Assembly: GCA_001192655.1 (NCBI GenBank) | Contig: BBVC01000142.1 | Coordinates: forward strand, 1 to 6,389 | Direction of reading: 5' to 3' | DNA length: 6,389 bases | Origin: Caedimonas varicaedens | Lineage (GTDB): Bacteria > Pseudomonadota > Alphaproteobacteria > Caedimonadales > Caedimonadaceae | Position numbers and translations under genes: made by a program | Part shown: piece by piece, positions 706 to 2,724 of the stretch | How the letters are laid out: the number at the start of each line of letters is the position of its first letter | How positions within the stretch are numbered: position 1 is the first letter of the stretch | Notes under the pieces: model-generated | What the model was told of the DNA's origin: nothing | Databases searched by the model: none | What the model saw: only the letters and a program-made list of their open reading frames with translations

Positions 706-2724
706 TTAACGCTGACCGTAATCTTTACAAAATTCTTGAATAAGGTTATCAAGAACAGCTCGGTGAGTTTCAAGTGTACGAAAACCTGCTTCCTGCAAGC
801 GAGAGATGTTCTCATTGTCCGCATTATCCATCTGGGTTTCTGAGGGCGCTAATAAAGGTTGGATACGAATATACCGAAGTCGGGAATCTTGATGGACTTC
901 CTCCTCTAGCAGAGATTCAGTATAAGCAGCCGCATTCTCCATAAGTACGCTGGCAATGTTAGCTCCCCAATGCAAAAGACCAGCATTTTCTAACTTTTGA
1001 TATTTTTTTCTCTTATGAGCTGAGCCTGTCCCTAAAGAAATTACCAAATATTCTTCCGCTTCCGGATAATACTGTTGCGCATGCTTGAATGCTAAGAGCG
1101 CAGGGTTATTAGCATAAATCCCCCCATCTATAAAAGTATAGGGTTTCCCCTTTCGGTTCTTGATCTGCGCTGCAGGGAAATAGGTCGGGGCTGCCGAAGT
1201 AGCACGTGCTACTCCGCGAATCTCAAAATCTTTGCTCCGCTTCTTCTTCGATTGACGGCTATCAAAAAGATACGCCTTATTCCGAGCTAAATCAAAAGAA
1301 GGGATGAGCATCGGGCATAAACAAGCGCTTAAGGGTGTGTCTTCAAAATAACGGGTTAACGTGTCTTCGAAATGCCTGGGATCATACTGAGCGCTTGACA
1401 TCTTCTTCAATAAATTCCAAGGCTTGGGAAAAATGTTGTGTCCTTGACATTGATACAGCTCGACGAGAGTCTGCGTCCCATACCGAGGAACGCCTCGCTC
1501 TCCCGGTATAGAGAGCCCCAGGCAGATTAATCCCCCCGTCGAGGTACCTGTCATCAGATCAACATGTTCGGCAAAGTGAAAAGGTTCGTTTGTATGACGA
1601 CTCACTTCTTGAGCGATATGATTCAAAAGAAGCGAGGGCAACAGACCCCGTATCCCTCCTCCATCAATGGACAAAATTCGTATCTGCTTCTTAGGCAGAG
1701 AGGCTAAGGAACGTGGGCGCTGCTTAATTTCCATCTTTTCTAACACTTGCCAACATCCATTGCTGGGCATCAAATCTTCTAAAAAAGTTACTAACTCATT
1801 AGAAATATAATTGCCTGCTAACTCGAGAAGCGTTAAACGACGATTGAAGAAAAACGCCTCAGCCCCTGCATCCGTGATCTGATTAAATCGCAAGCGCAAT
1901 GAGAGAAGACTCTTATGAGCCGCCAAGTCTTTAGCTCCTTTATTGCCGATGCCATTTTCCCGTAGATCCAGGGCCGTCAATGTCGTATTCAAGTTGAATG
2001 CTTGAGCTCCTTCATCTCCTACCCTATTTTTGTAAAGACCCAGATTTTTTAAGACGGTATTTTGAGCAAGTAAGCGAGTTCCTGCAGGTCCGATCTTATT
2101 CTTCCAGAGTCGAAGAGCCGTCAGGGAAGGATGCCCCTCTAAAAAGGCAACTCCCTTATCAGTAATGGCATTTTCTTCAAGACTCAATTCCTTAAGATGA
2201 AAAAGAGTCGAAAGAAGCTTTACGGTCTTGTCCTTGATCTGTCCTTTGAAAAGGTCAAGCTGCGTCAAATAAGGATTTGTTTGGATTAATGAAACGATGC
2301 TTCGAAGCTGCGCCGGTGGCAAAAGAACATTTTGCACTGATAAGTGGGAGCTCAGGGTACACGTTATCATTATCGTCGGGAAAAGAGGACCTAGCTCTCC
2401 TTGTCCTTGGCGCTGCCATTCTTGTTGAGCTCGCCAGAGCCCCAATGCCACATAAAAAGGGTCAAGACATGCCAAAAAATCAGAAGATACTTTCTCTTGT
2501 TCTTGCAGCCGTCTTTTCCAGGCTACCGACTCTTCAACAGAAAGGCCGAACCTTTGTAGATGGTTTAAAATCTCCTGTGATATCTCTGGAGAAAGCCTCG
2601 ATAGAGGAGCTCTGCTTAATCTTTTTTCTTGTTCCTTGTCTTCCTCAAGGTTGCTTGCTTTTCCTGAGGAAGAAAAAAGGAAGCTGACCATAACTATCAC
2701 TTTTAATAAGAAAGAAAAATACAT
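706..2724 (-). CDS. F-box-like / leucine-rich repeat / patatin-like phospholipase fusion protein (672 aa from ATG 2724)
   Basis: Long uninterrupted minus-strand ORF ending in TAA at 706-708. The ORF track begins at a GTG (2850), but the ATG at 2724 is preceded by a perfect AGGAGG with a 7-nt spacer. The domain content is readable directly from the translation (see the sub-features). Starting at 2724, the N-terminus is hydrophobic (MYFSFLLKVIVMVSFLFSSSG). Confidence 0.85.
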   Translation of the reverse strand: MYFSFLLKVIVMVSFLFSSSGKASNLEEDKEQEKRLSRAPLSRLSPEISQEILNHLQRFGLSVEESVAWKRRLQEQEKVSSDFLACLDPFYVALGLWRAQQEWQRQGQGELGPLFPTIMITCTLSSHLSVQNVLLPPAQLRSIVSLIQTNPYLTQLDLFKGQIKDKTVKLLSTLFHLKELSLEENAITDKGVAFLEGHPSLTALRLWKNKIGPAGTRLLAQNTVLKNLGLYKNRVGDEGAQAFNLNTTLTALDLRENGIGNKGAKDLAAHKSLLSLRLRFNQITDAGAEAFFFNRRLTLLELAGNYISNELVTFLEDLMPSNGCWQVLEKMEIKQRPRSLASLPKKQIRILSIDGGGIRGLLPSLLLNHIAQEVSRHTNEPFHFAEHVDLMTGTSTGGLICLGLSIPGERGVPRYGTQTLVELYQCQGHNIFPKPWNLLKKMSSAQYDPRHFEDTLTRYFEDTPLSACLCPMLIPSFDLARNKAYLFDSRQSKKKRSKDFEIRGVARATSAAPTYFPAAQIKNRKGKPYTFIDGGIYANNPALLAFKHAQQYYPEAEEYLVISLGTGSAHKRKKYQKLENAGLLHWGANIASVLMENAAAYTESLLEEEVHQDSRLRYIRIQPLLAPSETQMDNADNENISRLQEAGFRTLETHRAVLDNLIQEFCKDYGQR
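1015..1683 (-). other. Patatin-like phospholipase (PNPLA) catalytic domain with all conserved blocks intact
   Basis: Oxyanion/Gly-rich block ILSIDGGGIRG (GGGIRG at nt 1645-1662). Nucleophile elbow GTSTG (GxSxG, nt 1534-1548, Ser codon 1540-1542). Block ATSAAPTYFP (nt 1174-1203). Catalytic Asp block FIDGGIYANNP (Asp codon 1126-1128). The order and spacing match the canonical patatin Ser-Asp dyad fold, as in plant patatin, ExoU, VipD and CapV-type enzymes. Confidence 0.85.
1765..2268 (-). repeat. Seven in-phase 24-residue leucine-rich repeats (72-nt period), GALA/ribonuclease-inhibitor-like type
   Basis: The units (ORF-track residues 195-362) are LTQLDLFKGQIKDKTVKLLSTLFH / LKELSLEENAITDKGVAFLEGHPS / LTALRLWKNKIGPAGTRLLAQNTV / LKNLGLYKNRVGDEGAQAFNLNTT / LTALDLRENGIGNKGAKDLAAHKS / LLSLRLRFNQITDAGAEAFFFNRR / LTLLELAGNYISNELVTFLEDLMP. 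The consensus is LxxLxLxxNxIgdxGAxxLaxxxx. Confidence 0.8.
2500..2604 (-). other. F-box-like motif (tentative)
   Basis: LSRLSPEISQEILNHLQRFGLSVEESVAWKRRLQE fits the F-box pattern LxxLPxE(I/L)LxxI(L/F)xxL...(V)xxxW..L at positions L1, L4, E7, I8, I12, L13 and L16, plus the downstream Trp. The Pro is shifted by one residue and the L16-to-W spacer is about 2 residues short. The motif sits N-terminal to an LRR array, as in FBXL and GALA proteins. Confidence 0.4.

Follow-up and report, generated by a model that had tools for sequence, protein, structure and literature searches.

A predicted exported patatin-like phospholipase with GALA-type leucine-rich repeats in Caedimonas varicaedens, an endosymbiont of Paramecium

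Introduction

Caedimonas varicaedens, a member of the Holosporales, lives as an endosymbiont in Paramecium and is responsible for the R-body killer trait (PMC11909080). In this study, we analysed a 6,389-nucleotide stretch of its DNA (contig BBVC01000142.1 of assembly GCA_001192655.1, positions 1 to 6,389), called the window below, which carries on its minus strand a gene for a patatin-like phospholipase joined to leucine-rich repeats (LRRs). The locus raises the question of where such a lipase acts and what the LRRs do for it. A first reading made from the letters alone, hereafter the original prediction, had described a hydrophobic N-terminus, an F-box-like motif, seven LRRs and a patatin domain, and had proposed a phospholipase directed at the host through a protein-binding LRR and possibly through the Skp1-cullin-F-box (SCF) ubiquitin ligase. 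The best reading of this gene is still a host-directed lipase whose targeting or activation depends on its LRR, whereas the Skp1/SCF docking element did not survive. With slightly better than even confidence, we consider the product to be an exported, host-directed phospholipase of the Paramecium endosymbiont, targeted or activated by its LRR via a host protein.

The lipase gene and the layout of its product

The lipase gene, its ribosome-binding sequence and the parts of its product, from the N-terminus to the C-terminus, are as follows.

706-2724, minus strand: lipase gene, with the stop codon at 706-708 and the ATG at 2724-2722; product of 672 aa.
2731-2737, minus strand: Shine-Dalgarno sequence AGGAGGA, read from the sequence, 6 nt 5' of the ATG at 2724.
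2656-2724, minus strand: predicted Sec-type signal peptide, residues 1-23, with K8 in the n-region, the h-region VIVMVSFLF and a c-region to GKA/SN (slash, cleavage).
2605-2655, minus strand: acidic low-complexity linker, residues 24-40, of varying length across the family and gap-rich in the alignment.
2335-2604, minus strand: predicted family-specific four-helix N-terminal domain, residues 41-130, from an AlphaFold2 (AF2) model and a profile search.
2506-2604, minus strand: string earlier called F-box-like, residues 41-73, inside the N-terminal domain.
About residues 125-152: cap-like unit before the LRRs.
1765-2268, minus strand: seven 24-residue GALA-type LRRs, residues 153-320, consensus LxxLxLxxNxIgdxGaxxLa, in perfect phase.
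1690-1764, minus strand: flexible linker between LRR and patatin, residues 321-345, of low predicted local distance difference test score (pLDDT).
709-1689, minus strand: patatin-like phospholipase domain of the plant-patatin/CapV-like clade, residues 346-672.
1540-1542, minus strand: codon of Ser395, the nucleophile of GTSTG, invariant; counterpart of AbCapV S58.
1126-1128, minus strand: codon of Asp533, the general base in DGG, invariant; counterpart of AbCapV D192.

The database record of the 672-aa product is GenBank GAO99094.1 (UniProt A0A0K8MGU5), named "patatin-like phospholipase" of Caedimonas varicaedens. Some gene callers place the start further upstream, which gives 696- and 714-aa forms in metagenome annotations. 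We preferred the 672-aa start because AGGAGGA, a strong Shine-Dalgarno sequence, precedes the ATG at 2724. The GC content inside the lipase gene (751-2750) was ~43-47%, as against 33-39% in the flanking regions of insertion sequence (IS) remnants and pseudogenes. Purifying selection acts on the gene: in a comparison with a 95%-identical relative, the ratio of nonsynonymous to synonymous substitution rates (dN/dS) was 0.24 for the whole gene and 0.16 for the patatin domain.

The same order of signal peptide, N-terminal domain, LRR and patatin is shared by ~16-20 proteins from metagenomes or metagenome-assembled genomes (MAGs), which are 33%-95% identical to the window protein. GenBank names only one other family member, which is listed as "patatin-like phospholipase family protein" and comes from a Pseudomonadota MAG. 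The annotation as a patatin-like phospholipase is known already, and both modules are familiar effector parts. What appears to be new, on domain assignments, is the layout of signal peptide, N-terminal domain, LRR and patatin; a fusion of LRR and patatin was not found in the literature searched, which included a recent Holosporales review.

The patatin domain and its relation to CapV

The patatin domain matched the Pfam Patatin profile (PF01734) at 1e-20, with 75.2 bits against a cutoff of 27.7 and with profile positions 1-190 of 191 covered, and PF01734 was matched in 15 of 15 family members. In a Foldseek comparison, the AF2 model matched potato patatin-17 (Pat17) at 3e-20, with a template-modelling (TM) score on the target of 0.78, and AbCapV at 3e-16. 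The motifs DGGGIRG (354-360), GTSTG (393-397), ATSAAPTYFP (508-517) and DGG (533-535) were invariant in the 15 members. Thus, the complete patatin domain with four motifs that the original prediction had described was borne out by Pfam, Foldseek and this invariance, and the codon coordinates that it had given for the two catalytic residues were exact. In AbCapV, the S58A mutation abolishes phospholipid hydrolysis and D192 is the catalytic Asp (PMC12480259). Judged by these conserved motifs, the catalytic apparatus of the window protein, that is, the Ser395/Asp533 dyad and the oxyanion motif GGGIRG (355-360), is intact.

Plant Pat17 (1oxw/4pk9) was the best structural match and also gave the longest sequence alignment, which reached into the C-terminal helices and included all of the catalytic motifs. 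In contrast to the window protein, to which it is ~25% identical, Pat17 has no LRR and is a stand-alone acyl hydrolase with storage and defence roles in plants.

The lipases CapV and CapE of the cyclic oligonucleotide-based antiphage signalling system (CBASS) belong to the same patatin subclade, and the patatin domain superposes on AbCapV and CapE. Full-length matches were obtained with the NCBIfam model CBASS_lipase (NF041079; 188.9 bits, model positions 2-306 of 317) and with the PADLOC phospholipase (CBASS) models (1.5e-67, 226 bits). These similarities favour an anti-phage or abortive-infection role, in which the LRR serves as the sensor of a phage component, or the lipase answers a cyclic nucleotide in the manner of CapV, and the patatin domain then destroys the membrane of its own cell. 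We regard such a role as very unlikely. The CBASS_lipase score lies below the curated NCBIfam cutoff of 200, and potato patatin matched equally well or better in both sequence and fold, aligning further into the C-terminal helices. The C-terminal residues 579-672 of the window protein (94 aa), searched alone, had no PDB sequence match at E<=10, CapV included. The cGAMP-binding residues of AbCapV are F147, K149, D159, E207 and R279.

Architecture and context also speak against an anti-phage role. CapV is a single-domain cytoplasmic enzyme that is activated by cGAMP-induced filament formation (PMC12480259), and CapV and CapE have a CD-NTase neighbour, whereas the lipase domain studied here follows a ~345-residue N-terminal extension with a signal peptide and an LRR. 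The signal peptide would put the protein outside the cytoplasm, the site of phage sensing and cGAMP signalling. By the Pfam annotations of the neighbours, no CD-NTase, NTPase or other defence gene adjoined the gene in the window or at ten homologous loci. When GTDB genomes were scanned by patatin motifs, the matches listed were stand-alone patatins with no member of the fusion family among them. The nearest stand-alone bacterial patatins among these listed matches were mostly Bacteroidota, and the listed ones, from nine genomes, were also without PADLOC-detectable CBASS neighbours.

Membership in CapV was rejected on the sub-cutoff score, the missing CD-NTase neighbour and the different domain architecture. 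The original prediction had already set a CBASS-like or abortive-infection role aside, and the context, the signal peptide and the CBASS_lipase score support it in this.

Fungal and bacterial NLR-type patatin proteins likewise carry a repeat-based sensor and a patatin lipase in one polypeptide. They have a central NACHT or NB-ARC NTPase and an N-terminal patatin domain, whereas in the window protein the domain order is reversed, and NACHT, NB-ARC, STAND or other NTPase families had no match in the Pfam, NCBIfam and PADLOC scans.

The LRR array and its conserved concave face

The array matched Pfam LRR_6 at 2.2e-25 and was modelled by AF2 with a pLDDT of 89-97. Its best PDB sequence match was the "GALA protein" 9j7j (phmmer, 1.2e-39), followed by Legionella LegL1 (4xa9). 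Foldseek placed the same two, the RipG4 LRR domain (9j7j, 5e-12) and LegL1, at the top among LRR structures. Because RipG4 and LegL1 lead both the sequence and the fold matches, the label "GALA-type" is justified. The register of the repeats, the LRR_6 match and the RipG4 match agree with the seven perfectly phased 24-residue repeats that had been described. Ralstonia GALA/RipG proteins and LegL1 are proteins of host-associated bacteria and share with the window protein 24-residue LRRs of this consensus.

We found that the concave-face positions 5, 7 and 8 of the repeats were more conserved than the convex positions (entropy 1.62 vs 1.97). On the face predicted to be concave, position 7 of successive LRRs presents a conserved ladder, F/E/W/Y/R/R (F159, E183, W207, Y231, R255 and R279). 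The entropy of this ladder was very low, although the overall identity within the family is only about 45%. The ladder marks a candidate ligand-binding surface. The conserved concave positions suggest one conserved ligand rather than a diversifying sensor. Between the array and the lipase, the pLDDT fell to ~49-67 at residues 321-350, and the predicted TM score (pTM) of the full model was 0.55.

The N-terminus and the F-box question

The N-terminus was examined by heuristic hydrophobicity and -3/-1 analysis. The hydrophobic segment that the original prediction had noted is present at residues 1-23, and the likely cleavage site is GKA/SN. Of 18 family sequences, 15 showed the same three-part pattern, and the AxA-like sites of relatives include LWA/MD, VQA/MD, TQA/SH, LQA/ME and SQA/SL. 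AF2 modelled the N-terminus as a helix at residues 2-18 with low confidence, and the pLDDT was <50 at residues 18-42. Judged by these features, the segment looks like a Sec-type signal peptide that is family-wide, which the original prediction had not recognised. The signal peptide therefore points to export through the periplasm, probably followed by type II secretion, rather than to an F-box effector of a type III or type IV secretion system (T3SS or T4SS).

The domain that follows the acidic linker was then modelled alone. For residues 40-130, AF2 gave a pLDDT of 88.8 and a pTM of 0.81, with predicted helices at 46-58, 63-79, 89-107 and 116-124 (13, 17, 19 and 9 residues). A profile of the domain found only 8 matches among 1.84 billion representative proteins. 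Six of the 8 were family proteins, namely four full-length members, one LRR-only paralogue and one fragment that is identical to the window protein across residues 41-80. The other two were a short fragment with the same N-terminal layout and a low-complexity repeat protein. By this search and the predicted fold, residues 41-130 are a helical domain specific to this family, placed ahead of the LRR.

The string LSRLSPEISQEILNHL...W, which had been claimed as an F-box-like motif, is indeed present at residues 41-69. It led to the proposal of an effector that combines F-box, GALA-LRR and patatin and docks on host Skp1/SCF, with the ubiquitin-ligase machinery then targeting or activating the lipase. 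Three observations are in keeping with this proposal. The LRR is truly GALA-type and its nearest solved relative, RipG4, is a member of an F-box effector family; residues 46-58 align with F-box helix 1 across 13 columns (one amphipathic helix); and W69 is almost invariant in the family. However, every F-box sequence-profile and fold test was negative, and we give the proposal hardly any chance. The Pfam F-box families (PF00646/PF12937) were unmatched at E<=10 in all 15 members tested. An isolated 69-aa segment was also unmatched in Pfam, whereas 9 genuine control F-boxes scored 1e-8 to 1e-21. When the family profile of the domain was compared with the control F-box alignment by hhalign, the probability was 0.3%. 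A search of PDB sequences with the profile brought up no F-box chain at E<=10, and Foldseek of the domain model against the PDB returned no F-box protein and nothing at E<1.

The predicted structure gave the same answer. The original prediction had put forward structure prediction as a check for a three-helix F-box, and the region was modelled as four long helices, with W69 in the middle of the long helix 2, and not as a compact three-helix F-box of ~40-50 residues. The LP dipeptide, or LPxE, at the start of an F-box is a Skp1 contact, but the family alignment shows no conservation of the corresponding L44 and P46. Two family members (P0011 and P0013) lack the entire N-terminal domain, and the closest LRR relatives carry no F-box Pfam domain, as judged from an LRR-only homology search with few matches. 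A Sec signal peptide is also atypical of T3SS/T4SS F-box effectors. Thus, the profile searches that the original prediction had suggested confirmed the patatin domain and LRR_6, while the Pfam F-box call was negative.

F-box/SCF docking was rejected, since Pfam, the isolated segment with its controls, hhalign, the PDB profile search and Foldseek were all negative. The striking idea of a lipase wired to a host SCF ubiquitin ligase fails testing. RipG proteins have an N-terminal F-box, are T3SS substrates and have no lipase, whereas the window protein combines a Sec signal peptide with a C-terminal lipase and shows no detectable F-box. Because of its Sec-type signal peptide, we argue for a delivery route other than type III secretion.

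Homologous loci and the site of action

Close Caedimonas-like relatives have the gene flanked by housekeeping genes, either secA and glmS/glmU or cvpA, radA, mlaEF, alr and dnaB, often with an IS fragment just upstream. In distant relatives the surroundings are different. The homologue P0005 (L001 1-17875) follows directly after an F-type conjugation cluster (TrbC, TraN, TraF, TraG and coupling protein) with a HigB/helix-turn-helix pair, and stands just before a 1892-aa LRR protein. In other distant relatives, the gene is beside giant Sel1 and LRR proteins. We also found LRR-only paralogues (P0124 and P0142) from which the patatin domain is absent. LRR-only paralogues of 335 aa (L089 921-1928; P0124) have signal peptide, N-terminal domain and LRR but no patatin, and one of the LRR-only paralogues adjoins a MobA/TraI relaxase on a conjugative-element-like contig. 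The lipase family appears to travel as cargo of mobile elements. The LRR-only paralogues are either a targeting module working alone or truncated copies.

The neighbours at these loci are housekeeping genes, F-type tra or relaxase genes, and giant LRR and Sel1 proteins of a kind usual in intracellular symbionts, and this context supports a host-directed lipase. The setting in close relatives can also be read in another way. A signal peptide indicates Sec export only and not release to the host, and genes such as secA, glmS/glmU, mlaEF and alr are envelope or housekeeping genes. The lipase might therefore act in the periplasm or outer membrane of its own cell, in lipid remodelling or in autolysis of R-body cells, or it might act on competitors, with the LRR binding a bacterial partner. 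We consider an envelope-resident or bacteria-directed lipase improbable. The neighbours in distant relatives are giant LRR/Sel1 proteins and conjugative elements, and obligate endosymbionts meet few bacterial competitors. In obligate intracellular bacteria, both patatin lipases and LRRs of GALA or ribonuclease inhibitor (RI) type are known overwhelmingly as modules for interaction with the host. Patatin lipases in Holosporales have been described from this side (PMC11724238).

The chromosomal setting also bears on the killer trait. A membrane-attacking lipase is a plausible cytotoxin, and the protein could be the killer toxin, or part of it, that reaches sensitive paramecia on rupture of the food vacuole by R-bodies. 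We judge the chance of this to be slim at best. The prevailing view links killer determinants to plasmids or phages (PMC11909080), whereas the gene lies between chromosomal housekeeping genes in close relatives, and no linkage to reb genes was seen. Relatives of the same layout at 33-54% identity sit on other contigs, one of them labelled as a Pseudomonadota MAG. These relatives suggest that the family is wider than Caedimonas.

A model for an exported, LRR-guided lipase

We returned to the exported, host-directed lipase and considered how it could work. First, the protein would be exported by the Sec pathway, as its signal peptide suggests. It would then be released from the bacterium, most plausibly via a type II secretion system (T2SS); such systems are stated to be typical of Holosporales in general. 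Because Holosporales symbionts live free in the cytoplasm or nucleus of the host, a released lipase would directly meet host membranes. There, the conserved concave face of the LRR would bind a conserved host protein, and this binding would localise or activate the lipase on host membranes. The patatin domain could then cleave acyl chains off host glycerophospholipids and, for example, breach or remodel the membrane of the digestive vacuole or another host membrane. The proposed mechanism has no F-box or SCF step.

Cofactor control of this kind has precedents among patatin effectors. ExoU is activated by ubiquitin and VipD by Rab5. Together with VpdC, these effectors of intracellular or host-directed bacteria share with the window protein a patatin Ser/Asp lipase and a separate protein-binding module, which binds ubiquitin in ExoU, Rab5/22 in VipD and ubiquitin in VpdC, and VpdC depends on its separate ubiquitin-binding domain (PMC11696984). 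In contrast, ExoU, VipD and VpdC belong to other patatin subfamilies, use helical-bundle binding modules and are T3SS/T4SS substrates without a Sec signal, while in the window protein the module is an LRR fused in cis. Their cofactor activation serves as a model by analogy for the LRR-patatin protein.

Rickettsia Pat1/Pat2 and the patatin-like phospholipases that are common in Holosporales are likewise patatin lipases of obligate intracellular Alphaproteobacteria. They are implicated in host-membrane escape in a passage of one article that cites Borgo et al. 2022 (PMC11724238). No LRR fusion has been described for them in the literature searched.

Several points weigh against the host-directed lipase. 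Secretion, host target and lipase activity are all predicted from sequence, and the signal peptide call is heuristic only. The statement on T2SS is one on Holosporales in general. The inter-domain geometry of the AF2 model is unreliable (pTM 0.55), and because the linker is of low confidence as well, no model of LRR regulation or autoinhibition can be derived from it. The LRR-only paralogues and the two members without the N-terminal domain indicate that the modules can uncouple. Finally, few family members come with a taxonomy or lifestyle, and one carries only the label of a Pseudomonadota MAG.

A wider proposal, which we put forward tentatively and consider rather doubtful as yet, is that these proteins form a new class of lipase effectors of protist endosymbionts, secreted via Sec and a T2SS. 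By analogy with the cofactor-controlled lipases, the GALA-type LRR would be an inbuilt receptor that recognises a conserved eukaryotic protein and switches the lipase on only at the right host membrane. If true, ExoU, VipD and VpdC would have a counterpart in which activation by a host cofactor is encoded in cis, and in Caedimonas such a lipase could aid vacuole escape or even killer-trait toxicity. Independently of this proposal, the protein shows recruitment of the plant-patatin/CapV-like clade into a predicted exported, LRR-tethered format that is distinct from both the CBASS and the ExoU/VipD lineages.

To our knowledge, experiments have so far revealed little about the Holosporales endosymbionts of ciliates and amoebae, and hardly any of their effectors has been assigned a mechanism. 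The protein is a tractable entry point because its biochemical activity and its protein-binding module are both obvious. The LRR could be used as bait for the host partner, and the Ser395/Asp533 dyad offers clean loss-of-function controls.

Other features of the window

The features listed here lie upstream of the lipase gene. Scans of the window for tRNAs, Rfam families, promoters and terminators gave nothing informative.

4067-6127, minus strand: Cva_01771, second intact large gene; hypothetical protein of 686 aa, 100% identical to its database entry.
2914-3555, minus strand: degraded IS5-like transposase in four short open reading frames (ORFs), directly upstream of the lipase gene; HTH_Tnp_4 at 2e-13 and weak DDE_Tnp_1.

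The lipase gene had been called the only clearly intact large gene of this DNA. This is wrong, since the ORF of Cva_01771 is also intact and conserved. Its product was unmatched in Pfam, NCBIfam and PADLOC, and a search of 5.8 billion proteins yielded just three relatives, at 100%, 83% and 46% identity. The N-terminus of the product contains three imperfect ~17-aa repeats (QLTAAEeL..GQvNF), and the GC content of the ORF is ~40-45%, intermediate between that of the lipase gene and that of the flanks. Cva_01771 may be another lineage-specific effector.

The IS-remnant surroundings described before were confirmed by the Pfam transposase matches. Similar DDE_Tnp_1/4 fragments were present upstream of the gene in two close relatives (L087 and L088). 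Because these fragments recur despite a differing other flank, an IS-associated relocation is suggested.

Two short ORFs on the plus strand were also observed. The 81-aa ORF at 3610-3855 matched only positions 314-374 of the 374 in the NhaA Na+/H+ antiporter profile (3.5e-16) and is a pseudogene remnant. The 122-aa ORF at 224-592 is weakly similar to the C-terminus of an IS1 transposase (E 0.002-0.03), and another 122-aa ORF occupies the same relative place downstream of the gene in a 44-kb JGI contig.

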